This document shows, one piece after another, positions 1 to 12,397 of a stretch of 64,000 bases of DNA. The stretch lies in the NCBI GenBank assembly GCA_963734495.1, contig CAVTHK010000001.1, forward strand, positions 160,001 through 224,000. Reading direction: 5' to 3'. Every line of letters begins with the position of its first letter. The first letter of the stretch is position 1. A model generated the notes under the pieces. That model searched no databases and was not told where the DNA came from. It worked only from the letters and a program-made list of their open reading frames with translations. The position numbers and the translations under genes are program-made. Source of the stretch: an uncultured Spirochaetota bacterium. GTDB lineage: Bacteria > Spirochaetota > Spirochaetia > SZUA-6 > CAVTHK01.

Positions 1-553
1 GCCGCATCTCGAAGCCGTAGCCGCCCCCAATGGGGAACCAGCCGAGGTTCAGCGCGAACAGGTAGAGCAGGATGATGGAGAAGGCGAAAAAGGGCATCGA
101 GTTCACGAGCAGCGCAGCGGGAAAGAGCACCCGGTCGAAGGGCCCCTTCTTGTACGCCGTGATGGCCCCCAGCGCGTTGCCGATCAGCCAGCCGGTGAGG
201 ATGGCCGGAAGCTGAAGGCCGATCGTCCAGGGCACGGCCGAGCGCAGGATGCTCACGACCTTGCGGGGATAGAGCCCGAACGATGTGCCCATGTCGCCGC
301 GGAGCAGGTTCTTCACGTAGACGAGGAACTGGATCGCGATGGGCTTGTCCAGCCCGAACTCGCGGTAAAAGGTGTCGTAGAGCCGCTTGAGCGTGTTGCT
401 GTCGCTCAGGCCCTGCCCCATCTGGTCGACGATCATGCTCACCGGGTTGCCGCGGATCATGCGAGGCAGGAAGAAGTTCAGCATCACGGCCACGACCAGC
501 GTCAGCAGGTACCAGCCGCCGCGCCGGAGCAGGTACTTCGCGTAGTTGCTCAT
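1..553 (-). CDS. ABC transporter permease, OppB/DppB family (3' end outside window)
   Basis: Manual translation from ATG 553: MSNYAKYLLRRGGWYLLTLVVAVMLNFFLPRMIRGNP...FGLDKPIAIQFLVYVKNLLRGDMGTSF...PWTIGL; lies directly downstream of a family-5 binding protein. Confidence 0.9.
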   Translation of the reverse strand, partial: MSNYAKYLLRRGGWYLLTLVVAVMLNFFLPRMIRGNPVSMIVDQMGQGLSDSNTLKRLYDTFYREFGLDKPIAIQFLVYVKNLLRGDMGTSFGLYPRKVVSILRSAVPWTIGLQLPAILTGWLIGNALGAITAYKKGPFDRVLFPAALLVNSMPFFAFSIILLYLFALNLGWFPIGGGYGFEMR

Positions 554-566
554 GAGGTGCGCCGCG

Positions 567-590
567 AAAAGGGGCCCCCGGAGGGGCCCC
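567..590 (-). terminator. Stem-loop after the binding-protein gene (partial terminator or mRNA stabiliser)
   Basis: Minus strand GGGGCCCC-TCCG-GGGGCCCC followed by TTTT, between the SBP stop and the permease start. Confidence 0.6.
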
Positions 591-596
591 GAATGT

Positions 597-2348
597 CTAC
601 TTCGCCTTGATCATGTAAAGGCCGCGGACGCCCGACTGATCGGCGAGGATGGTGGGCGGGACGCCCGTGTTGTCCCCTTCGACCGGGAACCCGCTCCACA
701 CGCTGGTGTTGAAGGTGTAGAACCGGAAGGGGCGGTACATCAGGGGAACGGTCGAGACGTTCTTGAGCCAGATGACCGTGAGCTCGGTATACAGCTTCTT
801 GAGCTCCGCCTTGTCCGAGGTCCGCGGGATCTGCTCCAGGATCGCGTCGGCGCGGTCGTCATGGAACCTGTTGTAGTTCGAGAACGCGAGCTGCCCGACC
901 GCGGGGACGCCCTTGGAGTACAGAATGAAGTTGGCCCGCAGCCACGGCTGGCTCGGCATGGGCTGGCCGGCGGGGGCGAACATCACGACATCGAAGCTGC
1001 CGGTGTTGCGGTCGTTGGTGTAGACCGGCGCCTCGGGGAACTTGGTGCGCAGCTCGATGCCGATCTTCTGCGCGCTCTGAGCGACGATCTCGAGCGCGGC
1101 GTTCCAGTCAGTCCAGCCGTAGGGGCACTCCAGGTCCCACGGCCCCAGGCGCACGCCGTTGAGCACGCGGATGCCGTCCGCGCCTTTCTTGGCGCCGATG
1201 GAATCCAGCAGCTTGTTGGCGGCGTCCACGTCGTACTTCCACTGGTACTGCCTGATCGCGTCCTTGTCGATGTACTGCTCGGTCTCGACCGGCATCGTGA
1301 GCGCCGGCGTGATGTTCCTCGAATAGCCGCTCATCGCGAGCTCTTCGATCTTGGAATAGTCGATCGACATCGCGATCGCGCGCCGCACGTCCGGGTTGTT
1401 CATGCCGGGCTTGGAGAGGTTGAACCACATCGAAGGCATGCTCGCGGGCACGAAGTAGGGCAGGTCCTTGAGGTACGTCCGGATCGGCGTGCCGTCCTTC
1501 CACATGTCCCACACGTGAGGGGTGAACTGCTGCGACATGTCGACCTGGCTGTTCTTGAGCGCGAGGTCCCCGGCCGCATTGTCCTTGAAGATCGTGTGGG
1601 TGATGTACTTGGGCCCAGGGAGCTTGCCGAACAGCGCCTTGCCCCAGTAGTTGTCGTCGCGGATGAGCGTGATGCGGGTGTCGTCGTAGAAGAACATCTT
1701 GTACGGCCCGGAGGCCACCGGAGCCGGGTTGAAGAACTTGCGGATCTCGGCGATGTCGCCCTTGGCGTCCGCCTCGACCTTGGTCCAGACATGCTTGGGC
1801 AGCAGCGGCACGTCGCAGATGCTGTCGAGGATGAGCAGCTGGTTGGCCTTGTCCGCCTTTTGCTTGATGGTGAACGTGGCCGCGTCAGAGGCGGAGACCG
1901 AATCGATGTAGGTCCAGTACTGCGTCCAGTACGTGGTGTACTTCTTGCCCAGCTCGTAGCTGTAGGCCACGTCCTCAGCCGTCAGCTTCTGGCCGTCGTT
2001 CCAGTGCGCCGCCGGGTTGATCGAGACCTTGAGCGTGAGCGGGTCGGTCCACTCGTATTTCGCGCCGACCAGCGGGTCGATCTTGCCGTTGAGCATGTTG
2101 AAGGTGAACAGCGCCTCGTACGTGAGGAACCGCTGCTGCTGGATCGGGAACGACATGTTGCCGGTCAGCGGGTTGAAGTTGGTCGGGGCGCCCCATTGGA
2201 CGCCCGACATGTAGAGCGTCTCGTTTCGCGGGGTCGCCCCCTGCGGAGTGACGGCTTCTTCCTTCTTCTCAGACACAGGACCCGCAGATACCAGGCCCGC
2301 AGACAGGATCGCCAGCAGGCCGAGAACGAGGACCTTTCTGAATGCCAT
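597..2348 (-). CDS. ABC substrate-binding protein, family 5 (likely oligosaccharide-binding subgroup)
   Basis: Signal peptide MAFRKVLVLGLLAILSAG; PRNETLYMSGVQWGAPTNFNPL, WNDGQKLTAEDVAYS, GPYK, PYGWTDW motifs; GGAGG RBS before ATG 2348. Confidence 0.9.
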   Translation of the reverse strand: MAFRKVLVLGLLAILSAGLVSAGPVSEKKEEAVTPQGATPRNETLYMSGVQWGAPTNFNPLTGNMSFPIQQQRFLTYEALFTFNMLNGKIDPLVGAKYEWTDPLTLKVSINPAAHWNDGQKLTAEDVAYSYELGKKYTTYWTQYWTYIDSVSASDAATFTIKQKADKANQLLILDSICDVPLLPKHVWTKVEADAKGDIAEIRKFFNPAPVASGPYKMFFYDDTRITLIRDDNYWGKALFGKLPGPKYITHTIFKDNAAGDLALKNSQVDMSQQFTPHVWDMWKDGTPIRTYLKDLPYFVPASMPSMWFNLSKPGMNNPDVRRAIAMSIDYSKIEELAMSGYSRNITPALTMPVETEQYIDKDAIRQYQWKYDVDAANKLLDSIGAKKGADGIRVLNGVRLGPWDLECPYGWTDWNAALEIVAQSAQKIGIELRTKFPEAPVYTNDRNTGSFDVVMFAPAGQPMPSQPWLRANFILYSKGVPAVGQLAFSNYNRFHDDRADAILEQIPRTSDKAELKKLYTELTVIWLKNVSTVPLMYRPFRFYTFNTSVWSGFPVEGDNTGVPPTILADQSGVRGLYMIKAK

Positions 2349-2406
2349 GACAGTGCCTCCTTGAGACAACTGACTTCGACGGGAGCTGTGCCCGCCGCAA
2401 AAGGAA

Positions 2407-2435
2407 AGTCTAAGGGCGCTTCCTGCCGCTGTCAA
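2407..2435 (-). promoter_or_regulatory. Sigma70-type promoter of the ABC operon
   Basis: Minus strand TTGACA-17 nt-TAGACT, about 60 nt upstream of the SBP start. Confidence 0.55.
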
Positions 2436-2540
2436 ATCGAGCCTCGCTGGACATCGCGGGACTGGCGCGCCGGGCCACGCGCGCTCGTTGACGCTGCCTT
2501 GGGCGTGAGTCTAGTATCCGGGTGCGTAAAAGAGGTCGAA

Positions 2541-4433
2541 ATGGACAGCCCGCTGTATCTCATCCTCGAACCCGACAGGAATCCGGCCGGGCTCAGGGGT
2601 CTCCTCGAGTCGCACCCCGAGATACGCTTCGTTTCGCTTTCGGGCGTCGACCTGGGCGGCAACGACACCGACGAAAGGATCCCCGTGACTCACTTTCTCG
2701 GCCATATCGAGGAGTACCTTTCCGGCGGCGTGCAGACCGACGGCTCGAGCGTCGTCCTGCCGGGGATAGCGACGCTCAACGACGGCCAGGTCGACCTCGT
2801 CGCCGACCCGGACGTGCGCTGGTACGTCGACTACAACACCGAGCTCGGGGATCCCGAGGCGAGGGTCCCCGTCGGCACGCTCCGCATCCCGGCATTCCTG
2901 AAGCACGGAACGCGGTTCGTGGACTCGCGCTCCCTGCTCAAACGCGCCGTCGAGAGCTGCGAGCGGCGCCTGCTCGCGCTGCTGCGCTCCCATCCCGCGG
3001 CCGCGCGGGCCGCGGGCATCGACCCGGCGGGCGTCGTGGGCCTGCAGCTCGCCGCTGCGACGGAGCTCGAGTTCTGGGTGCGGACCCCGGGCGGCACGAT
3101 CGAGGCCGAGCAGCTGGAGGTGTCGCAGGTGCTGCAGGAGTCGTACTGGAAGCGGACCAAGGGCTCGGTGCGCTCCGCCCTCGAGCTCTCGCTGATGCTG
3201 CTCGAAAGGTACGGCCTCGCCCCCGAGATGGGCCACAAGGAGGTCGGCGGCGTCAAGGCGACCGTGAGCGGGCAGGGCGGCTTCGACGACATCATGGAGC
3301 AGCTCGAGATCGACTGGAGGTACGCGCCGGCCCTGCAGGCCGCGGACAACGAGCTGCTCGCGCGCATCATGATCAAGGAGACGTTTCGCCGCCACGGGCT
3401 GGAGGCCACCTTCATGGCCAAGCCGATGGACCTCGTGGCGGGCAGCGGGGAGCATACGCACGTGAACATCGTGGCGCTGATGCGCGACGGGTCGCGCGCG
3501 AACCTCTTCGCGCCCCGCGACCCGGGCGCGGACTACCTCGGCCCGCTCGGCTGGGGCGCGCTCATGGGGCTGCTGCGCAACTACGAGGCTGCCGGCGCGT
3601 TCGTCACCGCCTCCAACGACGCCTTCAACCGCCTCAAGCCGGGCTTCGAGGCGCCGGTCTGCATCGTCGCCTCCGTCGGCCGCGACGTCAAGCTGCCGTC
3701 GCGCAACCGCACCGTGCTCGTGGGCGTGGTGCGGGAGCTCGCGAACCCGCTCTCGACGCGCTTCGAGGTGCGGGCCCCGAACCCGCACACCAACACCTAC
3801 CTGGCGCTCGCCGCCTTCTGCCAGTCCATGGCCGACGGGATGCGCTGGGCGGCGGAGAGCGCGAAGCCTGCGGCCGAGCTCGAAGCCGGGTTCTCGAAGG
3901 CGGCCGGCGCTCCCCACCCCTACCTGGAGGCCGGTCGCGCCTACCGCAGCGAAGAAGACGTCTTCGAGGACTACGACGACAAGGAGCGCGAGTCCGCGTT
4001 CGGCCGGCCGCCCGCGACGGTATGGGAGACCCTGGCGAACCTCGACGCCTGTCCGGAAAAGACCGCCGTGCTCTGCGTGGACGGCGTGTTCTCCCCGGAG
4101 CTCATCGACTCGTACAGGCGGGCGATGCTGCTGCGCTGGACGATGGAGCTCTCGAGCCGGATCATCCCCGACAACTCGAGGCTCGTGCATGGCTGCGTGC
4201 GGATGGACGGCGAGAACCGGCTGGACCAGGAGCGCTGGGGCCGCATCGAGGCGCTCAAGCAGGCCCTGGCCCGCGACGACGTCGACCGGACGTGTCTGTT
4301 TACGCGGATCCGCGAAGCGGTCGCCGCGGGAGAGTACGCGACCGTCTCCTCCCTGCAGCTGGAAATGGAGGCGCGGATGGCGGAGCTCGCCGGCCTCCAC
4401 CGCCTCTACCGCAGGAACCTCGGGCCAGCCTGA
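2541..4433 (+). CDS. Glutamine synthetase-family protein (long, about 630 aa)
   Basis: TDGSS, TELEFW, HKEVG, EQLEID, FMAKP..AGSGEHTH, NRLKPGFEAP, RFEVRAPNPHTNTYL motifs; GAGG RBS before ATG 2541. The 546-2540 part of the listed ORF is antisense shadow of the SBP. Confidence 0.85.
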   Translation: MDSPLYLILEPDRNPAGLRGLLESHPEIRFVSLSGVDLGGNDTDERIPVTHFLGHIEEYLSGGVQTDGSSVVLPGIATLNDGQVDLVADPDVRWYVDYNTELGDPEARVPVGTLRIPAFLKHGTRFVDSRSLLKRAVESCERRLLALLRSHPAAARAAGIDPAGVVGLQLAAATELEFWVRTPGGTIEAEQLEVSQVLQESYWKRTKGSVRSALELSLMLLERYGLAPEMGHKEVGGVKATVSGQGGFDDIMEQLEIDWRYAPALQAADNELLARIMIKETFRRHGLEATFMAKPMDLVAGSGEHTHVNIVALMRDGSRANLFAPRDPGADYLGPLGWGALMGLLRNYEAAGAFVTASNDAFNRLKPGFEAPVCIVASVGRDVKLPSRNRTVLVGVVRELANPLSTRFEVRAPNPHTNTYLALAAFCQSMADGMRWAAESAKPAAELEAGFSKAAGAPHPYLEAGRAYRSEEDVFEDYDDKERESAFGRPPATVWETLANLDACPEKTAVLCVDGVFSPELIDSYRRAMLLRWTMELSSRIIPDNSRLVHGCVRMDGENRLDQERWGRIEALKQALARDDVDRTCLFTRIREAVAAGEYATVSSLQLEMEARMAELAGLHRLYRRNLGPA

Positions 4434-4469
4434 GCCGCCGGGTGTCCCGCCGCGCGCTCTTGCGGGCGC

Positions 4470-5789
4470 TTGCCGGCGGCTCGCCGTGTGGCGTATTGTC
4501 CCTGCGAGGTCTCGGCTGCCCTGCTGTACCTTCTTCTGTTTCTTTTTTCCTTCGCCGCGGTGCCGGTCTTTGCCTACCTCGATCCCGGCACGGGGAGCCT
4601 CCTGCTCTACGCCCTCGTCGGCATAGCGACGACCGCGCTGTTCGCCCTGAGGAATCTCTGGTACTGGGCGAAGGGCAAGACGCTCCTGTCGGCGACGGCG
4701 GTCGTTCGGGCCGAGCTTCCGGACATCGTGTTCCATTCCGAGGGAGGCAAGTACTGGCAGGTCTTTCAGCCGGTGCTCGCCGGCCTGCAGCAGCTCGGTG
4801 TTTCCTGCGCGTACGTCACCCCCGACGCGGCGGACCCCGCACTGAGCTGGACCGCGAAGGGGTTCACGGCGGTCCACCCGGGCGGCGAGATGATGACGAT
4901 CGCCTACATGAACGCGATCAAGGCGGCGATGGTCGTCTCCACGACCCCGAGCCTCGACGTCTACATGCTCAGGCGCTCCCGCAAGGTCAAGCACTACGCG
5001 CACCTGTTCCACGCCCCGACCGATGTCGCGTTCTACGAGAAGTTCGCGTTCGACTACTACGATTCGCTGCTCACGGTCGGCTCCTTCCAGGAACGGAGCG
5101 TCCGCGAGCTGGAACGAAGACGCGGCCTCGAGGAGAAGCAGCTCTTCGAGACGGGGTGCCCCTACTACGACTACATGCTCGAAGAGATGAGGGGTCTCGC
5201 GCCGAGGGAGACCTCCGGGCTGACCGTGCTCTATGCGCCGGCCTGGGGCGGCAGGAGCTCGGTCCTCAAGTACGGGACCGCGCTGCTCGACGCGCTGGCT
5301 CGAGCCGGAATCAGGACCATCTTCCGCCCTCATCCGCAGTTCTACGTTTCCCATCTCGACATCATCCGGGACATCGAGAAGAAGCTCTCGGGCAGCGCGC
5401 ACGTCGAGATCGACACGAACAGGACCGGCATCAGCAGCATGAGCAGGTCGGACGTGATGATCACGGACCTGTCCGGTGTCCTCCTCGACTACGCGTTCCT
5501 GTTCGAGCGGCCGATCATCCTCGCGAACTCGCGGGCGGACGTCGGCGGCCAGGAGGGCGAGGACCTGTCCGGCGAGATCTGGGATGTCGCGGTGAGCAGG
5601 CGGTTGGCGCGCTGCCTCGCCGACGATGAAGTCGGGCGCATCCCCGACATCGTCGTCCAGGCGAACGCCGACGGCGCGCAGTACGCCGGCGCCATCCGCG
5701 CGGTCAGAGACGGGGAGATCTACAACTTCGGGCGCGCGGGCCGCGCCGCGGCCGACAGCATCGCGAGGGTGCTCGGAGGCCTCGTGTGA
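4470..5789 (+). CDS. CDP-glycerol glycerophosphotransferase (TagB/TagF-like) with N-terminal membrane anchor; start uncertain
   Basis: LYAPAW, FRPHP and SDVMITDLSGVLLDYAFL motifs; hydrophobic N-terminus with YLDPGTGSLL. Confidence 0.75.
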   Translation: MPAARRVAYCPCEVSAALLYLLLFLFSFAAVPVFAYLDPGTGSLLLYALVGIATTALFALRNLWYWAKGKTLLSATAVVRAELPDIVFHSEGGKYWQVFQPVLAGLQQLGVSCAYVTPDAADPALSWTAKGFTAVHPGGEMMTIAYMNAIKAAMVVSTTPSLDVYMLRRSRKVKHYAHLFHAPTDVAFYEKFAFDYYDSLLTVGSFQERSVRELERRRGLEEKQLFETGCPYYDYMLEEMRGLAPRETSGLTVLYAPAWGGRSSVLKYGTALLDALARAGIRTIFRPHPQFYVSHLDIIRDIEKKLSGSAHVEIDTNRTGISSMSRSDVMITDLSGVLLDYAFLFERPIILANSRADVGGQEGEDLSGEIWDVAVSRRLARCLADDEVGRIPDIVVQANADGAQYAGAIRAVRDGEIYNFGRAGRAAADSIARVLGGLV

Positions 5790-8677
5790 ACGCCCTGCAC
5801 GCGATCTTCATCAGGCCCGTCGAGCAGCTCCTCGAGCTCCTCTTCGTGCGGTTCGCGGCCGCGACGGGCAGCTACGGCTGGTCTCTCGTCCTCCTCAGCC
5901 TGGCGGTGACGCTCATCACGGCCCCCCTCTACTACGTGGCGGAGCGCTGGAAGATCCGCGAACAGATCCTCCAGAAGACGATGGCCCGGGACCTGGCCAG
6001 CATCAGGAAGCACTATTCCGGCCAGAAGCGGTTCTACCTCGTCAGGAACGTCCACCGGCTCCACGGCTACAAATCCTTCTACGCGCTGCGCACGTCGCTG
6101 GGCCTCCTGATCCAGATCCCCTTCTTCTTCGCGGCGTACGGGTACCTGTCGCAGTTCCGGGGCTACGCGGGCACGGGCTTTCTCTTTGTCCCGGACCTGG
6201 GCCGCCCCGACGACCTCCTCTGGGGCGCTGCCCTGCTCCCCTTTGTCATGACCGCCGTCAACGTGGTGTCCTCCCTCGTCTACACCCGCTCCCGGTCCCT
6301 CAAAGACAACGCGCAGCTTCTCCTGCTGGCGCTCGTCTTTCTCGTCGTCCTCTACGACCAGCCCGCCGGGCTCCTCGTCTACTGGACGATGAACAACGTG
6401 TTCGCCATGCTCAAGAACCTCCTGCTCGCGCGTTTTCTGCCGCAGCCCGGGCCGGCCGCCGCCGGCGAGCCCGCGGCGGCGGTCAGCCGACGCGTGCTCA
6501 CGGCCGCCGAGCTTTCGCCGTGGTACTTCGTGCCCGTGGCCCTGCTGGTGGCCGCCCAGGCGTTCTGGCAGGTCCACTTCGATCGAAGCTTCAAGTACTG
6601 CATACTCGCGACCGCGATCATCGGCGCGGCGCTTTCGTTCGCGCTCATTCTCCGGCAGGCTCGTGTGCCGAGGCCGCGGTCCGCGCGGCTCCGTTCGATG
6701 GACCTGGCTCTGCTGTGGGCGCTCTTCGGCGTTTCGGCGTACCTGCTTCTTTTCGAGAGGCGGCAGAACATCCTCCTTTCGAACGCCACGGTCAAGTTCA
6801 TCCCGGCGGTGATCCAGGACATCATCGTCTACGTTGCCGGCAGACGCCTTCTTCCCGGGGCGCCGGCCGAGGACGCCGGCCTCGCCCCGGCGCAGGCCCG
6901 CAGGATCTTCGAGGCGGCCTCCGTGTTCCTGTTCGCCTACGTCTTCGTCCTCTCCCCGATGCTGGTCTATTTCTCGTCGCCGCAGGACATCGGTATCGAG
7001 GTGGGACCCCTCCTGGCGCGCCTTGCGCCCTGGGCGATCGGGTTCTCGCTGGCGAGTGCCGGCCTGATCAGGCTCGCGGGCGGGGGCGCTCAGCGCCGCG
7101 CGGCCGAAGCGTCGGTGGCGCTCATACTGGTCGCGATCACCTACAGCTACGTGATCCCCGGCGACTACGGGATCCTCGACGAGTTCAACCTCGAGAAGGC
7201 CTTTCTGCTGGAGCACACGCCGCTCGGCCTGTTCCTGGTCGACGTTCTGGTGATCATCCTGGCGGCAGCGGCCTCCCGGTACGCGCTGCGCAGGTGGGCG
7301 ACGGTCGTGGTGCCGTGCCTGGGAGCCGTGGCGATCGCGTTCGCGGTGCAGGTCACCGTGAGCGCGGTGCGAATGGACCGCGCGGCGATCGTGGCGGCGG
7401 ATCGCGAAACCCCCGCCCTTCCCGCGGACAGCGGCGCCGTCAATCACTTCTCGAAGACCGGCCGGAACATCGTGCTCGTCATCGCGGACATGTTCAACGG
7501 CAACTACATCGGGAGGATGCTCGAGCAGTTCCCCGAGACGCGGGACAAGCTGGACGGATTCACGTGGTACCCGAACACCCTCTCGATCTCTTCGCACACC
7601 GCGACTTCTCTCCCCGGGGTCCTCGGCGGCTGGAACTATTCTCCCGAGCACATGAACGCCGTCCCCGGCACGGGGATGCAGAAGTACGAGGAGGCTGTCG
7701 CCGGCTTCGGCACCGCGCTGCTCGATCGCGGCTACGACGTCTCGATGGTCGACCTGCTCTACATGGATGCCGCGAAGATCGGCGGGGGCAAGTACGCCGG
7801 GAAGCTGCACGTCGGCAGGTCGGACGAGTACGTCGGCTACTGGAGAGGCGCTGCGGGCGGGTCCGTCAAGCGCGAGCTCGCGGGCGGCAAGGCGCGCCTT
7901 CTCGTGATGGTCACGCTGTTCCAGTCCGTCCCGTTCATGCTCAAAGCCAGGGTCTACGACGACGGGAGCTGGCTCGTGTTCCGGCGTTCGTACCAGTTCG
8001 ACTACATCGCGCGGAAGACCACGGGCAACTACGCTTACCTCGACCTGCTCCCGAAGGTGTCGACGGCCGCGGGCCCCGGCGACACCTTCAAATTCATCCA
8101 CACGCAATTCACCCACGAGCCGTTCGGGATCACGCGCGAGGGCAGGATCATCGACCGGGAGTTCCCGGATCCGCAGTCCCGCAGCTTCATCGACGGCACG
8201 AGCGCCTACTACACCGCGCGCAAGTTCATCGACTTTCTGGCGGCGTGGACGCTCTGGATGAAGCGCGAAGGCATCTACGACAACACGTTCATCGTGGTGG
8301 TGTCGGACCACAGCAACAACGCCATGGACAATGACCTGAGACTGCCCGACGCCGCCGCGGGGCTCGTCCGCAGGCACGACATCTCGAGGGCCGGCGCCCT
8401 CCTGCTGGTCAAGCGGTTCGGAGGCTCGGGCCCCCTGCGCAGGGACGACAGGCTCATGAGCAACGCGGATACGCCGGCCATCGTGCTGAACGCGGCCGGC
8501 GACCGGTCGGTCTACGGCGAGGACCCCACGGAAGGGCCTGCCCCGAGAGGCCGCGTCGTCGAGTATGGGAGCCTCCGCGACAACTGGCACGATTTCCTGA
8601 ACAGCGAGCGCGCGAAGTTCAACGAGTACCTGGTCAGGGACAACATCTACGTGCCGGCCAACTGGGAGATCAAGTAG
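5786..8677 (+). CDS. YidC/Oxa1-like domain fused to a polytopic membrane region and a C-terminal alkaline-phosphatase/sulfatase (LtaS-like) domain
   Basis: N-term GSYGWSLVLLSLAV..PL, LLIQIPFF, FLFVPDLGRPD, PAGLLVYWTMNN; C-term NIVLVIADM, HTATSLP, THEPF, VVSDH; GTGA overlap with the upstream gene. Confidence 0.8.
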   Translation: MNALHAIFIRPVEQLLELLFVRFAAATGSYGWSLVLLSLAVTLITAPLYYVAERWKIREQILQKTMARDLASIRKHYSGQKRFYLVRNVHRLHGYKSFYALRTSLGLLIQIPFFFAAYGYLSQFRGYAGTGFLFVPDLGRPDDLLWGAALLPFVMTAVNVVSSLVYTRSRSLKDNAQLLLLALVFLVVLYDQPAGLLVYWTMNNVFAMLKNLLLARFLPQPGPAAAGEPAAAVSRRVLTAAELSPWYFVPVALLVAAQAFWQVHFDRSFKYCILATAIIGAALSFALILRQARVPRPRSARLRSMDLALLWALFGVSAYLLLFERRQNILLSNATVKFIPAVIQDIIVYVAGRRLLPGAPAEDAGLAPAQARRIFEAASVFLFAYVFVLSPMLVYFSSPQDIGIEVGPLLARLAPWAIGFSLASAGLIRLAGGGAQRRAAEASVALILVAITYSYVIPGDYGILDEFNLEKAFLLEHTPLGLFLVDVLVIILAAAASRYALRRWATVVVPCLGAVAIAFAVQVTVSAVRMDRAAIVAADRETPALPADSGAVNHFSKTGRNIVLVIADMFNGNYIGRMLEQFPETRDKLDGFTWYPNTLSISSHTATSLPGVLGGWNYSPEHMNAVPGTGMQKYEEAVAGFGTALLDRGYDVSMVDLLYMDAAKIGGGKYAGKLHVGRSDEYVGYWRGAAGGSVKRELAGGKARLLVMVTLFQSVPFMLKARVYDDGSWLVFRRSYQFDYIARKTTGNYAYLDLLPKVSTAAGPGDTFKFIHTQFTHEPFGITREGRIIDREFPDPQSRSFIDGTSAYYTARKFIDFLAAWTLWMKREGIYDNTFIVVVSDHSNNAMDNDLRLPDAAAGLVRRHDISRAGALLLVKRFGGSGPLRRDDRLMSNADTPAIVLNAAGDRSVYGEDPTEGPAPRGRVVEYGSLRDNWHDFLNSERAKFNEYLVRDNIYVPANWEIK

Positions 8678-8820
8678 GCGCGACCCTTGCGCCCGGGACG
8701 TGCGCGCGGGCCTGCGCCGGGGCCGCACGCCTCGGACTCCTGCGCCAGGAACCGTTTGCACAACCGGGAGCCGCGTGGCATCATGGCGCCCCCCAATCGA
8801 ATCATGCGGGAGGTGAGACC

Positions 8821-10042
8821 GTGTCCGTCCGCTCCACTGTCGAACGCGCGCTCGAGCAGGGCCGCGGGATCCTGCGCCTCGCTCCGAACTGGGTGCCCCG
8901 ATCGTTCTGCGTGCCGGGACGCAGGATCAAGCTTCACCCGGACGACTACTACGCCCTGGGCATAGAGCGGGGCGGCATCGACGAACGATGGTTCGCCTCC
9001 ACGACGCCGGCCGACAACGGCCCGAAGACCGCGCCCGACGAGGGCTTGAGCCGTATCGTCTTCGAAGACGGCGGCCGCGCGTCGCAGGTGCTGCTGAGGG
9101 ACGCGGTCGCCGAGATGAAGGGCGCCCTGATCGGCGACCGCCTCTGGAAGCAGCACGGCCGCTGGCCGATGTACTCCAAGTTCTTCGACAACAAGGGGCC
9201 GCTTCCGCACCACATCCACCACAGGGACGAGCACGCGGCCCTGGTCGGCCAGTCGGGCAAGCCGGAGGCGTACTACTTTCCGCCGCAGCTCAACAACCAC
9301 GGGGGAGACTTCCCTTATACCTTCTTCGGTTTCACCCCGGAGACGACCAGGGCGCAGGTGAGAGAAGCCCTCGTCAACTTCGAGAAGGGCGACAACAGGA
9401 TCACGGCCCTCTCGCGCTGCTACCGGCTCGAGGCGGGCACGGGATGGGACGTGCCGCCGGGAGTGCTGCATGCGCCCGGAAGCCTCTGCACCTACGAGCC
9501 TCAGAAGGCCTCCGACGTGTATTCCATGTACCAGTCCCTCGCCGGCGACCGATTGCTGGAGCCCGACGCGCTGTGGAAGGATTCTCCCAAGGAGAAGCGG
9601 GGGGACTTCGACTACCTGATCGAGCTCATCGACTGGCCCCTCAACGTCGACCCGGACCTTCACGCCAAGCGCTTCATGCCCCCGATTCCGGCGGGCGATC
9701 CGAAGGCGATGGCGGCGCAGGGTTACTCGGACCTCTGGGTGGCCTACAAATCGCACGCGTTCAGCGCCAAGGAGCTGACGGTCTTTCCGGGCCGCACCGT
9801 CACCATCCGCGACGCGGCCGCGTACGGGCTCATCATGACGCAGGGGCACGGCACCATGGGCGCGTGGGACGTGGAGACCCCGGTCCTTTATCCGCTACGG
9901 ACAGGTCTCCAGCGACGAGCTCTTCGTGACGGAAGCGGCCGCGCGGGAGGGAGTCACGATCGCCAACCCTTCGCGGACCGACCCGCTGGTGATGCTCAAG
10001 CATTTCGGGCCGGGCAACCCCGACCTGACCGTGCGGTCCTGA
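8821..10042 (+). CDS. Cupin-fold, phosphomannose-isomerase-like protein; frameshift near 9888
   Basis: PLPHHIHH, GKPEAYYF, VPPGVLHAPG, YEPQKASD; continues in the +1 frame as IRYGQVSSDELFVTE...LKHFGPGNPDLTVRS* (TGA 10040-10042). Confidence 0.7.
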
Positions 10043-10095
10043 GGCGACCGCGCGGCCCGCGGCCCGCGGCGCGCGGCGCGCGCGGCTCCGAGGCC

Positions 10096-10613
10096 ATGAT
10101 CCTCACGATCGGTCATTCGAATCGGGCGATCGAGGAATTTCTGGCGCTCCTGAGACGTCACGGCGTCGAGAAGGTCGTCGACGTGCGCACCATCCCCGGC
10201 TCGGCGCGCAACCCGCAGTTCAACGCGGAAACGCCTCGAAGCGAGCCTCCGCACCGCCGGAATCGCCTACCGGCACATCAGGGGGCTCGGCGGCCTTCGC
10301 CGGGCTCACAAGGATTCGCCGAACGCGGGCTGGCGCAACGCGTCGTTCCGCGGGTTCGCCGACTACATGCTGAGCCCCGAGTTCGAGGAGAGCCTGGCCT
10401 CACTCGTGCAGGAAGCCGCCGTGTGCGGTCACCGCGATCATGTGCGCCGAGGCGTTGCCGTGGCGCTGCCACCGGTCGCTGATAGCGGACGCCCTCACGG
10501 TCCGGGGGGTGGAGGTGGAGCACATCATCGGCGCGGGCGAGAGGCGGCATCACACCATGACGTCGTTCGCCAGGGTCCAAGGCACGCGCATCATCTACGC
10601 CTCGAGCGACTGA
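10096..10613 (+). CDS. DUF488-family protein; frameshifts near 10233 and 10430
   Basis: MILTIGHSNR..VVDVRTIPGS..NPQFN / LGGLRR..WRNASFRGFADYM / IMCAEALPWRCHRSLIADAL pieced together across three frames. Confidence 0.8.
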
Positions 10614-10664
10614 CCCGGGTCCGGGCTTGCGCGTTCTCCGCGCGCGCACAATAGTAGGCGCAGC

Positions 10665-11285
10665 ATGAAGACATACGAGTACGCGCGCATCCGCGTGCTG
10701 GCGCAGAGCATGGCGGAATCGGGGATCGACCCGGGCACCGCGGCCCGCATCCTCGAAGGCGGCGAGCTGGTCAGGAGGGGCACGAAGCCGGAGGGCAAGG
10801 CGGACTGGATGCGCGCCGCGATGCGCAGGATGGACGCGCTGCTCGACACGCAGACGAGGCGGCGCGTGCGCGAGCGATGCGCGTGCTGCCTCGGCGGAAA
10901 ACGCCTGGAGATATCGAAGAGCATCGCCCGGGAGAACGCGAGCCTCGACGAGAGGATCCGGGCGGCCAACGGCGCGAAGCTCGTGTTCGGCCACAGCGTC
11001 ACGCGCGAGGCCGACGGCGGCGTGGTCGTGCGCTTCCGACCTGAAGGGGAGGCAAGCTATGCTTGCGTGTGCCTGCCGCAGGCGAAGGCGCCGCTGCCCA
11101 TCACCTACTGCTATTGCTGCGGCGGCCACGTGAAGCACCACCTCCAGACCGCACTGGGCCGCAAGCTCGAATGCACCGTGCTGTCGTCGGCCCTCGCCAG
11201 CGGGGGGAAGAGGCCGTGCGCGTTCCGCTTCCGGCTCGTCGAGCAGGCCGCCTCCGGCGAGCCGCGAAAGCAGCCCCCCGCATGA
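10665..11285 (+). CDS. Cys-rich hypothetical protein (DUF6144-like, probable metal-binding)
   Basis: CACCLGG, YACVC, PITYCYCCGGH, CAFRF; 206-aa ORF. Confidence 0.6.
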   Translation: MKTYEYARIRVLAQSMAESGIDPGTAARILEGGELVRRGTKPEGKADWMRAAMRRMDALLDTQTRRRVRERCACCLGGKRLEISKSIARENASLDERIRAANGAKLVFGHSVTREADGGVVVRFRPEGEASYACVCLPQAKAPLPITYCYCCGGHVKHHLQTALGRKLECTVLSSALASGGKRPCAFRFRLVEQAASGEPRKQPPA

Positions 11286-12397
11286 GAGAGCTGCTTGATC
11301 GGCACGCCCGCGACCAGCTCATCGAGCTCGCGCGGACCATGGTCGACCAGGAAAGGGCGCGTATCGTCGTCCCGCCGTACGACAACAGCGAAGGCTTCTG
11401 GTTCGGCGCGGGCAACCTCTCGCGCGACGGCAGCGGCGCGTTCACCCTGGTGGGTCGATACCGGAACGCCGGCGACTCGCGCACCGGCCTCTCGGCAGGC
11501 GTCCGCGGGCTGGAGCTCGCGGTGTTCCGCTCGGTCGACGGCGCGAAGACCTTCGACAAGGTGCTCTCGCTGTCCAAGCGCGACCTCACGTTCGACGACC
11601 GGGAGGTCGTCTCGATCGAGGGCGCCAAGCTGCTGTTCTCCGATTCGGGCGTGGAGCTCTTCGTCTCGACGGAGAAGACGGGCATCCCCTACCCCGCGCA
11701 TCTCGCTGCCTTCCTCAAACCCGGCACCGGCGTCTGGACCATCGATCACGCGGCTGCCCCGTCGGTCGAGAGGCTCCGGGGAGCGAAGCTCCAGACCATC
11801 GTGGCGAGCACCGACCCGCGCTGGCTCCACGTCAAGGACCCTGTTCTGTACCCGGCGCGCAACGGCGACACGGTGATGTTCTTCTGCACGCACCCCTTCA
11901 ACTGGACGAGCTCGAACACGGGCATGACCGTCAGGAGGAGAGGCGCGGCCTCATTCGGCCCGCCCGAGTTCGAGCGCTTCCCGCGCGGGTTCACCTGGGA
12001 CGTGGCCATGAGCCGGATCACCGGGCTCTGCCCCGTGCCTCGGACCGGCCTCCTGGCGAGCGAGCCCGAAATCGCGCTGGCTTTCTACGACGGAGGCGAG
12101 TCCATGCGCCGCTGCGAGGAGCACGCCGCTTCGGTCCGGCGTCCGCGGGGCTACTCGTGCGAGGAGATCGGGGGTCTCGCATTCCTGCGCGGAGGCATCG
12201 AGGGGCCCATCGAGCGGCTCTCCGTCGACCTCCCGCTCTTCGTGAGCCCGCGCGGCACCGGCTGCAGCCGCTACGTGGATGTGCTGCCGACCGAACAGGG
12301 GTACCACGTGACGTGGCAGCAATCGCAGGCCGACGGCTCGCAGCCGCTCGTCATGAGCTTCGTGAGCAGGCAGGAGATCGAGCGCATCCTCCGGTGA
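11282..12397 (+). CDS. Sialidase/BNR-type beta-propeller glycoside hydrolase-like protein
   Basis: ATG 11282 overlaps the upstream stop (ATGA); Asp-box-like FRSVDGAKTF; HVKDP and CSRYVD motifs. Confidence 0.6.
   Translation: MRELLDRHARDQLIELARTMVDQERARIVVPPYDNSEGFWFGAGNLSRDGSGAFTLVGRYRNAGDSRTGLSAGVRGLELAVFRSVDGAKTFDKVLSLSKRDLTFDDREVVSIEGAKLLFSDSGVELFVSTEKTGIPYPAHLAAFLKPGTGVWTIDHAAAPSVERLRGAKLQTIVASTDPRWLHVKDPVLYPARNGDTVMFFCTHPFNWTSSNTGMTVRRRGAASFGPPEFERFPRGFTWDVAMSRITGLCPVPRTGLLASEPEIALAFYDGGESMRRCEEHAASVRRPRGYSCEEIGGLAFLRGGIEGPIERLSVDLPLFVSPRGTGCSRYVDVLPTEQGYHVTWQQSQADGSQPLVMSFVSRQEIERILR

Follow-up and report, generated by a model that had tools for sequence, protein, structure and literature searches.

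A TagF-like transferase and a fusion of YidC-like and phosphotransferase-like domains form a conserved gene pair in Spirochaetota, a candidate module for envelope head-group decoration

We analyzed a window of 64,000 nucleotides from an uncultured Spirochaetota bacterium (assembly GCA_963734495.1, contig CAVTHK010000001.1, positions 160,001 to 224,000 of the forward strand), in which two overlapping forward-strand genes encode a TagF-like protein and a fusion of a YidC/Oxa1-like core, a series of transmembrane (TM) helices and a domain of the alkaline phosphatase superfamily. The TagF-like open reading frame (ORF; P0001) occupies 4470..5789 and encodes 439 amino acids from a TTG at 4470, and the fusion ORF (P0002, 'YS') occupies 5786..8677 and encodes 963 amino acids from a GTG start. 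The GTG (5786-5788) lies over the TGA of the upstream gene (5787-5789) in a four-base GTGA overlap (5786..5789), an arrangement predicted to couple the translation of both genes. Because the database protein record for the first gene matches only residues 8-439 of the 439, translation probably begins with the GTG at 4488 and not with the TTG at 4470, which would give a protein of 433 amino acids. A Pfam scan placed Glyphos_transf (PF04464; 38.4 bits, cut-off 22.1) in P0001 and 60KD_IMP (PF02096; 71.6 bits, cut-off 35) at residues 30-214 of P0002, with Sulfatase (PF00884) at residues 560-848 just under its cut-off (24.6 against 25 bits); in precomputed Pfam annotation, PF00884 is assigned to the identical record as well as to most homologues. 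The overlapping genes and their domains had been described in an earlier sequence-only reading, and this observed architecture was confirmed in every respect. We find that the pair is a real, conserved two-gene module. We consider it rather likely that both proteins act together in head-group decoration and propose, with moderate confidence, that the two genes form one functional unit that installs head groups on the envelope, from transfer from a CMP-linked donor inside to attachment outside.

The YidC/Oxa1-like core covers residues 1-217 of the fusion (5786..6436) and comprises an amphipathic N-terminal helix, five TM helices and a cytoplasmic hairpin rich in Lys and Arg (about residues 53-92) that contains GQKRFYL. 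Residues 25-214 align in sequence with solved YidC chains. The AlphaFold model of the fusion, built from a 25-row alignment (mean predicted local distance difference test (pLDDT) score 85.2, predicted template modelling score (pTM) 0.71), places core helices at residues 30-76, 79-92, 98-121, 151-166, 172-189 and 194-217, with pLDDT mostly 80-93 over residues 1-217. The five-TM core with a cytoplasmic helical hairpin between its first two TM helices is present in this model, in agreement with the expectation that the N-terminus folds as YidC. In NCBIfam, only YidC models matched P0002, all under their cut-offs; the best was TIGR03592 (yidC_oxa1_cterm; 73.5 bits against 84.3), and the equivalog models were all far under. 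A separate housekeeping yidC lies on the same contig in the order rnpA-yidC-jag, with Ribonuclease_P encoded on one side and Jag/KH/R3H on the other; it encodes 588 amino acids with 60KD_IMP (207.6-211.5 bits) and the YidC periplasmic domain, and P0002 is 28% identical to it over 123 residues. The genome therefore holds the canonical yidC beside rnpA for which a check had been suggested, and the fusion is not the housekeeping yidC. At the position of the YidC groove arginine, aligned with the Arg of 3wo6/3wo7 and 6y86/5y83, the fusion has T42 (5909..5911). Among 25 family members this column holds Thr in 17, Asn in 7 and Ser in 1, and never Arg or Lys. By its sequence, the YidC-like domain is altered, with the groove arginine lost.

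The core is followed by a disordered, Pro/Ala-rich cytoplasmic linker (residues 223-240, 6452..6505; pLDDT below 50 at 223-235 and 237-240), four further TM helices in which no family was detected (residues 241-355, 6506..6850; helices 241-264, 266-292, 297-323 and 333-355), five TM helices (residues 368-529, 6887..7372) and the alkaline-phosphatase-superfamily domain, assigned by fold and motif (residues 557-963, 7454..8674). The model thus predicts about 14 TM helices. Segments rich in Lys and Arg fall on the same side of the membrane: the hairpin at 53-92, the linker and loops near 290-306, 353-373, 431-441 and 504-505. Because nine helices follow the cytoplasmic linker and the Arg-rich loops alternate, the C-terminal domain is predicted to lie outside the membrane. 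The last five helices and this periplasmic domain resemble the membrane module and enzyme domain of PbgA, EptA, MCR-1 and LtaS, and the model suggests a match to that architecture. With the full-length model, Foldseek returned PbgA 6xlp at rank 1, then MCR-1 9nww, EptA 5fgn and LtaS 2w5q (E about 1e-6 to 1e-7), and in VIA the comparison with PbgA 6xlp aligned model residues 363-963 with chain residues 7-547 (Z 20.5, root-mean-square deviation (rmsd) 13.1 A).

The predicted active site of the periplasmic domain is invariant in the 25-member family alignment. The candidate nucleophile is T605 (7598-7600), in the motif SSHTATSLP at the start of helix 605-618, and the candidate ligands of metal or substrate are D568 (7487-7489), after strand 561-567, H777 (8114-8116) and D841-H842 (8306-8311), after strand 834-839; N561 is likewise invariant. 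These residues were assigned by fold position and motif. An invariant Thr combined with Asp and Asp-His speaks for an LtaS/EptA-type phosphotransferase and against a formylglycine sulfatase, and among solved structures the best sequence match of the domain, by family profile, was LtaS 2w5q (36.5 bits). VIA comparisons with residues 557-963 gave tied Z scores of 19.1-21.6 to sulfatases, YejM/PbgA, LtaP/LtaS, EptC and MCR-1, for example LtaP 4uop (Z 20.4, rmsd 3.9 A, 299 residues aligned), EptC 6a82 (Z 19.9) and MCR-1 5lrm (Z 19.2). A search for unfused relatives of residues 241-963 gave 24 matches at E <=1e-10 among 7999 scored; the three close ones that had no YidC domain (P0124, P0125 and P0126) lie on contigs of 1.9-3.3 kb and are maybe truncated.

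The TagF-like protein consists of a hydrophobic N-terminal segment, the motif YLDPGTGS, one TM helix and a GT-B domain. In its model (pLDDT 87.6, pTM 0.82), which has a GT-B fold, the first ten Foldseek matches were all TagF chains (E 5.8e-14 to 5.2e-13, top 3l7k), followed by the capsule polymerase Cps3D 8qoy and TarL 8va1, and VIA ranked UDP-GlcNAc 2-epimerases (Z 21.9) above TarL (Z 19.8) and TagF (Z 19.5). Three donor-side motifs of the family profile correspond to motifs of TagF/Cps3D: APsW to APTW, RPHPQ to LRMH and isDlSgvifDy to ITDYSSVMFDY. We therefore regard the first gene as a probable TagF-family enzyme that has kept the CDP-donor motifs, as had been read from its sequence. In an alignment of 30 TagF-like sequences, R-P-H-P-Q (residues 286-290, 5325..5339), which includes H288 and aligns with the R-M-H of the donor-binding half of TagF, is invariant (30/30), as are H178 and H181 in H-L-F-H-A (5001..5012; 30/30). 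Going by known TagF motifs, we take H178 and H181 to be candidate counterparts of the catalytic-histidine motif of TagF (H444). YLDPGTGS itself (residues 36-43, 4575..4598) reads Y-[LI]-D-P-G-T-G-S across the family, with Y36, D38, P39, G42 and S43 invariant in 30/30; it lies just ahead of the one TM helix, and basic residues come after the helix. Because of that single helix and the basic residues after it, the catalytic domain is predicted to be cytoplasmic and anchored by one TM helix. In some relatives a signal-peptide-like hydrophobic segment with an A-x-A-like site precedes the motif, and others start a few residues ahead of it. P0001 is the sole Glyphos_transf match in the genome, and its subfamily comprises 302 representatives at E <=1e-30 among 1.84 billion proteins.

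Three relatives of the TagF-like protein have other architectures. P0208 and P0210 are proteins of about 1025 amino acids with some 600 extra C-terminal residues, and in P0208, hhalign matched residues 620-948 to the final TM helix plus the phosphatase domain found in the fusion family (probability 83%, E 9e-6), an alignment that takes in the D and DH positions. These proteins may be direct fusions of a TagF-like part to the phosphatase domain with no YidC part. A further protein, P0178 (784 amino acids), joins a TagF-like protein to a GT4 glycosyltransferase.

Conservation of the pairing in other genomes, which the sequence-only reading had proposed to survey, was found at two levels. Among 201 sampled genomes of Spirochaetota, which include kin and are not independent, so that the counts are a description and not a test, a fusion gene (best E <=1e-57) was present in 35 genomes from 13 genera, and all 35 also had a TagF-like gene. 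TagF-like genes were found in 36 of the 201, the extra genome (G087) having a distant match only. At the looser threshold of E <=1e-30, the fusion profile matched 87 of the 201 genomes; 52 of these were single matches at 1e-31 to 1e-40, and the weak matches that were listed individually sit in frames of about 510-610 amino acids, the size of ordinary YidC. In a wider search, the fusion had 141 relatives among 8000 scored candidates, labelled only 'YidC/Oxa1 family membrane protein insertase' or 'hypothetical'. Gene neighborhoods were counted in the best 76 of at least 637 contig stretches that encode a fusion relative, mostly from Treponema, Brachyspira and other Spirochaetota, with some from Desulfovibrionaceae, Bulleidia, Neptunomonas and Odoribacter. 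By ORF clustering, 70 of these 76 loci had a fusion ORF, 52 a TagF-like ORF and 50 both. The 52 loci contained 58 TagF-like ORFs, 45 of which lie within 300 bp of a fusion gene on the same strand (21 upstream, 24 downstream); another 10 share the strand of a fusion gene at a distance of 1.9-6.5 kb, with donor genes in the gap. Of the last three, one has the opposite orientation and two come from short contigs.

Rearranged forms of the module occur as well. Treponema putidum (L011) has a tandem array in the order fusion, TagF, fusion, TagF, fusion, and Treponema denticola likewise carries the pair in tandem. Six loci (L042, L047, L049, L051, L056 and L060) have a split form, in which a YidC-like gene, a TagF-like gene and a gene for a TM-phosphatase protein of about 595 amino acids stand together; in L056 these encode 228 amino acids (8001-8687; 60KD_IMP 77.8 bits), 430 amino acids (8704-9996; Glyphos_transf 40 bits) and 597 amino acids (10010-11803). 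The split loci belong to Leptospirales and other Spirochaetota metagenome-assembled genomes, and four of the six have PepM, Ppd and NTase-AEPT genes just upstream on the other strand (NTase, nucleotidyltransferase). In two genomes of 1.4-1.5 Mb (G095:C3:31027-32794 and G181:C21:18242-20090), the YidC-like part is a 224-amino-acid frame with an in-frame TAA, beside a weaker TagF-like match that in G181 holds two internal TAA codons; these copies may be split, decaying or differently read.

A complex prediction further connects the two proteins. It covered fusion residues 1-545, which end before the periplasmic domain, and TagF-like residues 14-439, each with its own alignment, and gave an ipSAE of 0.69 (runs 0.72, 0.69 and 0.68), compared to 0.00 for the best of three controls. 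In calibration, 116 of 157 solved complexes came up to the ipSAE mark, as did 2 of 215 mismatched pairs. At least 44% of contacts are common to the runs, and the partner has a pLDDT of at least 77. On the fusion side, the predicted interface comprises residues 69-92, including K81, F83, Y84 and L85 of GQKRFYL, and 229-232. On the TagF-like side it comprises residues 164-166, 190-195, 216-219 and 359-364 of the catalytic domain and residues 61 and 65 of the juxtamembrane helix. These last two were the only residues of the helix to appear, and the prediction gave no confident contact of the YLDPGTGS tail or TM helix with the YidC groove. The model supports, and does not show, binding of the TagF-like protein to the YidC-like hairpin.

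The genes that accompany the pair in relatives point to candidate substrates. We assigned donor-gene classes by BLAST of each ORF against one reference per domain. The commonest third gene encodes a LicC/PntC-like NTase domain, which occurs in several architectures. In one, the NTase is joined to a CobD-like pyridoxal phosphate (PLP) decarboxylase whose best solved match is 6oux (144.7 bits); in a second, found in Brachyspira, it is joined to a choline/ethanolamine kinase with an EamA permease adjoining; in a third, of the Tde1415 type, it is joined to or stands beside a class-V aminotransferase, with PepM and Ppd. A nucleotidyl-activation gene was found in 34 of the 52 TagF-like loci: 11 with NTase-CobD-like decarboxylase, 10 with phosphonate genes (two of them also with a stand-alone cytidylyltransferase), 6 with NTase-choline kinase, 3 with a stand-alone cytidylyltransferase only and 4 of other kinds. 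A stand-alone TagD-like cytidylyltransferase was present in only 5 of 52, of which L016, L018 and L022 were inspected. The row in L078, for example, reads TagF-like, cytidylyltransferase-PepM, Ppd, NTase-AEPT, fusion, and that in L030 (Neptunomonas qingdaonensis, 1045-8341) reads cytidylyltransferase-PepM, Ppd, iron alcohol dehydrogenase, TagF-like and a shorter fusion (815 amino acids). Because of the dehydrogenase in its row, L030 suggests a head group of hydroxyethylphosphonate rather than aminoethylphosphonate.

The same trend is seen across genomes. PepM (TIGR02320) occurs in 12 of the 35 pair-positive genomes, compared to 11 of the 166 others, and the NTase-decarboxylase of the type found in L007 occurs in 8 of the 201 genomes, all 8 pair-positive; together the two cover 19 of the 35. 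The L007-type architecture is represented by L007:10910-12724 and 11 other ORFs. The 604-amino-acid protein of L007 was considered as an NTase-aminotransferase orthologous to Tde1415 (PntC-AEPT), and this assignment was rejected: only its N-terminal 160 residues match 6pd1, and its C-terminal half matches 6oux, named a 'threonine phosphate decarboxylase-like enzyme', and CobD 1lc5. True NTase-class-V-aminotransferase fusions occur at other loci. We take 6oux to be a serine-phosphate decarboxylase that makes phosphoethanolamine, in which case L007-type fusions could presumably provide a de novo route to CDP-ethanolamine or CDP-aminopropanol. In sum, the neighbors of the pair make cytidylyl-activated small head groups and are mostly not CDP-glycerol genes. 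Because 10 phosphonate, 11 decarboxylase and 6 choline-kinase loci stand against 5 TagD-like ones, the donor would more often be aminoethylphosphonate, phosphocholine or a phosphoethanolamine-like compound than glycerol phosphate. Genes for glycan synthesis and export (UGDH, ManC, Bac_transf, GT4 and Wzt-like ABC) lie near several loci. In eight Brachyspira loci (L023, L024, L025, L029, L035, L037, L057 and L069), SpoIID-like and SLT lytic transglycosylase genes follow the fusion gene or cassette, which may be genus synteny only or a hint of a peptidoglycan-linked acceptor.

In the genome under study, which is 83% complete, a phosphonate cluster lies on the same contig as the pair (G000:C1:626000-644000, L088). 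It contains PepM (TIGR02320, 376.4 bits, cut-off 319.55) joined to an NTP_transf_3 domain, Ppd (TIGR03297, 423.5 bits, cut-off 312.5), a class-V aminotransferase (Aminotran_5, 78.7 bits), a second NTP_transf_3 domain, an ABC-2 permease and ATPase pair and an NAD-dependent epimerase, and its ORF at L088:5566-6465, which had no family match, could be a further transferase. The gene set of the Pnt pathway, namely PepM, Ppd, aminotransferase and two nucleotidyltransferases that are candidate LicC-like cytidylyltransferases, is thus present. Within the 83% that is represented, LicD had no match, the L007-type NTase-decarboxylase fusion was not found, and glycerol-3-phosphate cytidylyltransferase (TagD, TIGR01518) reached at best 36.9 bits against a cut-off of 165.4; genes for CDP-ribitol were not searched for. 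By exclusion, the most likely donor for the single TagF-like enzyme of this genome would be CMP-2-aminoethylphosphonate (CMP-AEP), a conclusion that we hold plausible and place just short of probable. Two elements of the sequence-only reading found no support here. The 'polyol-phosphate' nature of the product is disfavored by the sub-threshold TagD score in this incomplete genome and the scarcity of TagD-like genes at TagF-like loci, and the module does not look 'self-contained', as its activated donor would come from other genes. The chemistry is probably decoration with a phosphonate or zwitterionic-phosphate head group rather than synthesis of a polyol-phosphate polymer.

TagF-family enzymes pass an alcohol-phosphate from CDP-alcohols and free CMP, and LtaS, EptA, OpgB and BcsG transfer a phospholipid head group by way of a Thr to an acceptor outside the membrane. 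The division of labor suggested from sequence alone, with a cytoplasmic CDP-dependent transferase and a periplasmic alkaline-phosphatase-type domain with a Thr nucleophile, is supported by our analysis. In the mechanism that we propose, the TagF-like enzyme would dock on the cytoplasmic hairpin of the YidC-like core and move a head-group phosphate or phosphonate from its CMP-linked donor onto a membrane lipid carrier, with release of CMP; the donor would be CMP-AEP in this genome and CDP-choline, a CDP-ethanolamine-like compound or CDP-glycerol in relatives. The hydrophilic groove of the YidC-like core would then carry the polar head of the lipid to the outer leaflet, where the periplasmic domain would load the head group on Thr605 and hand it to an envelope acceptor, which could be a glycolipid, a glycan or a protein. 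Candidate acceptors are diacylglycerol-anchored treponeme glycolipids or the glycan products of neighboring genes (UGDH, ManC, Bac_transf, GT4 and Wzt-like). What the YidC fold does is the question of greatest interest about the module. Its repurposing, as put forward in the sequence-only reading, is strengthened by the missing groove arginine and the predicted docking on the hairpin, and is not proven. The complete sequence of making, flipping and attaching, with the YidC fold as conduit, is a tentative scheme. In it, the fold would have been recruited from protein insertion into a machine of three parts with a private lipid-linked donor, where it would let lipid head groups pass and offer a platform for docking, a proposal that we put forward only as a possibility. 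As part of the same joint and equally speculative reading, in phosphonate producers this machine could be the missing step that carries CMP-aminoethylphosphonate onto the cell surface. A report (PMC11047089) describes scrambling of glycerophospholipids by Escherichia coli YidC in vitro.

Several observations weigh against this proposal. The role of the module is inferred from genes, folds and context. The pairing is incomplete at the level of loci: 20 of the 70 fusion loci had no TagF-like ORF in the fetched DNA, and seven of these had at least 4.6 kb on both sides, among them the two loci with the highest identity to the query (L004 and L005, 50-54%); the neighbors in L004 are unrelated housekeeping genes. 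Up to seven fusion-matched places were found per genome, more than one of which may fall in a single gene, compared to one or two TagF-like genes, and because fusion matches outnumber TagF-like genes, the fusion can probably also work with no dedicated TagF-like partner. The link to activated donors has similar gaps, since 18 of the 52 TagF-like loci had no activation gene in the fetched DNA and 23 of the 35 pair-positive genomes had no PepM. In this window there is no donor gene beside the pair; the phosphonate cluster, at a distance of about 470 kb, comes with an ABC-2 transporter of its own and may include an unrecognized transferase as well, and the assignment of aminoethylphosphonate (AEP) rests on exclusion in an incomplete genome. 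The predicted interface does not stand out in conservation: in the fusion it scores 0.57, as do the residues around it (0.57), and in the TagF-like protein 0.54, compared to 0.51 around it. The tied Z scores of the periplasmic domain mean that fold cannot separate a transferase of the LtaS/EptA type from a true sulfatase or the non-catalytic PbgA. Finally, the groove arginine is reported to be dispensable in E. coli YidC, and because of this its absence does not exclude insertase activity.

In one alternative, which we consider unlikely, the two proteins carry out separate steps. The TagF-like enzyme would decorate a lipid-linked glycan in the cytoplasm, in the manner of LicD, the periplasmic domain would independently draw on bulk phosphatidylethanolamine, phosphatidylglycerol or phosphatidylcholine, like EptA and LtaS, and the YidC-like domain would be no more than a passive scaffold or an insertase or chaperone built into the protein, helping to insert the fused nine-TM module or the N-out tail of the TagF-like protein. 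The excess of fusion-matched places over TagF-like genes, the fusion genes that have no TagF-like neighbor and the glycan genes (UGDH, ManC, Bac_transf, GT4 and Wzt-like ABC) near several loci would all be expected if this were the case. Surplus fusion paralogues could represent several acceptor-specific outer enzymes on one donor pool, and they fit the use of bulk phospholipids equally well. The N-terminus of the TagF-like protein, with a short tail and one TM helix oriented N-out/C-in by the positive-inside rule, also resembles a substrate that depends on YidC only, as known for such proteins in general. However, separate steps would not predict the strict one-to-one co-occurrence of both families in the 201 genomes, the tandem TagF-fusion-TagF-fusion arrays such as that in L011, or the split form, in which the YidC-like gene stays beside the TagF-like gene. 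Relatives such as LtaS, EptA and PbgA function with no YidC of their own, 25/25 members have lost the groove arginine, and the predicted contact joins the catalytic domain to the YidC hairpin rather than the TM tail to the groove.

Alternatively, the pair could be a self-contained teichoic-acid-like system, in which the TagF-like enzyme would use CDP-glycerol to make a unit or polymer of glycerol- or polyol-phosphate, for the LtaS-like domain to attach or extend outside; we regard this as quite improbable. Pfam and fold do place the first gene in the CDP-glycerol glycerophosphotransferase family, the periplasmic domain finds its best sequence match among solved structures in LtaS, 5 of the 52 TagF-like loci carry a stand-alone TagD-like cytidylyltransferase, and the lipooligosaccharide of Treponema denticola, according to PMC3776326, has a diacylglycerol anchor. 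Against these stand the TagD score far under its cut-off in this genome and the neighborhoods, most of which encode phosphonate, choline kinase-NTase or decarboxylase-NTase donors, and nothing points to polymerization over single transfer. A hydrolytic role of the periplasmic domain, as phosphodiesterase or sulfatase, is very unlikely, and so is a role as a PbgA/YejM-type sensor that binds lipid and has no catalytic activity: true sulfatases and YejM/PbgA do top the VIA comparison (Z 20.5-21.6) and PbgA 6xlp is first in Foldseek, but the nucleophile position holds Thr in 25/25, not the Cys or Ser of a sulfatase formylglycine motif, the metal-ligand positions D568, D841 and H842 are invariant, whereas PbgA has lost these residues, and membrane anchoring and gene context point to transfer.

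The genes downstream of the pair in this window are unrelated or lack an assigned family. Upstream, a glutamine synthetase gene ends 36 bases before the TagF-like ORF. Its ORF spans 546-4433 on the forward strand, with Gln-synt_C (120.5 bits) at residues 918-1108 of an over-long frame; the real gene covers about 2480-4433, and the long 5' extension is probably non-coding. Directly 3' of the fusion, the sole family match in the ORF at 8821-10482 (forward strand) is a short stretch of DUF488 toward the C-terminus (residues 437-472); the ORF probably represents two genes and showed no connection with the pair. A scan of positions 4200-9000 returned no promoter-like and three terminator-like sites, with 1.8 expected, and was uninformative.

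Literature searches turned up no characterization of the pair or of the fusion, in line with the earlier statement that none was known, although the genes may appear under other names in the supplementary cluster tables that accompany Rice et al. and Li and Horsman. On CMP-AEP together with a transferase, the searches turned up only Rice et al. (PMC6697681), who report that PntC enzymes make CMP-AEP, state that the later steps are unknown and do not mention YidC, sulfatase or TagF. Li and Horsman (PMC8942020) describe Selenomonas phosphonate clusters with 'multiple sulfatases' that are assigned to phosphonolipids. A survey of phosphorylcholine genes (PMC10434233) did not contain the terms Treponema, Brachyspira, Spirochaet-, glycerophosphotransferase or YidC, and Acker et al. 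(PMC8931226) did not contain sulfatase, YidC, LicD, teichoic, CDP-glycerol or glycerophosphotransferase.

The cassette is a testable candidate for the transfer step that leads from AEP to phosphonyl modification of the cell surface, where PMC6697681 describes the steps as unknown. It is likewise a candidate for a LicD-independent route to decoration of the phosphocholine or phosphoethanolamine type in spirochaetes, including oral Treponema and intestinal Brachyspira. Zwitterionic envelope head groups affect immune recognition and resistance to cationic peptides, which makes such a route of interest for host-microbe interactions. If the proposed role of the YidC-like core is true, it would be a natural use of the YidC/Oxa1 fold other than insertion and would bear on the recently found scrambling of lipids by insertases described in PMC11047089.

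The families of the parts are known, as is envelope head-group decoration as a job. The new elements are the joining of a YidC fold to an LtaS/EptA-like enzyme, the pairing of this fusion with a membrane-anchored TagF-like enzyme and the link to donors of the AEP, choline and ethanolamine type. Like LtaS, EptA (MCR-1), OpgB and BcsG, the fusion has a TM module followed by a periplasmic alkaline-phosphatase fold with Thr at the nucleophile position and Asp/Asp-His ligands, and by analogy it would be expected to take a phospho-head group off a lipid and pass it to an acceptor in the envelope. Those enzymes, however, have five TM helices and no YidC domain and use bulk phospholipids, whereas the fusion has about 14 predicted TM helices with a YidC-like core and is genetically tied to a cytoplasmic CDP-dependent transferase; its sequence likeness to the LtaS/EptA type is weak, at 36.5 bits to LtaS by family profile and just below the cut-off for Pfam Sulfatase. 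The TagF-like protein shares Glyphos_transf, the GT-B fold and the donor-side motifs APxW, R-x-H and (S/T)D-x-S-x4-D-Y with TagF, TagB, TarL and Cps3D, yet it belongs to a distinct subfamily with an N-terminal TM anchor and an invariant YLDPGTGS, and the neighbors of the pair make donors of the AEP, choline or ethanolamine type rather than the CDP-glycerol or CDP-ribitol of TagF, TagB and TarL. With YidC, Oxa1 and SpoIIIJ, the fusion shares the 60KD_IMP core, five TM helices and the cytoplasmic hairpin; unlike them, it falls under the NCBIfam cut-off, has Thr, Asn or Ser in place of the groove Arg, lies outside rnpA-yidC-jag and is joined to an enzyme. The closest parallels in purpose are the Lic (LicA/B/C/D) and Pnt (PntC, Tde1415) pathways, which also activate a small head group by cytidylylation for decoration of the envelope and whose genes, either NTase-choline kinase with an EamA permease or PepM/Ppd/AEPT/NTase, adjoin the pair in relatives. 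In those pathways the transferase is LicD-like or unknown, whereas here LicD had no match in the 83% of the genome represented and the TagF-like protein and the fusion stand in its place.

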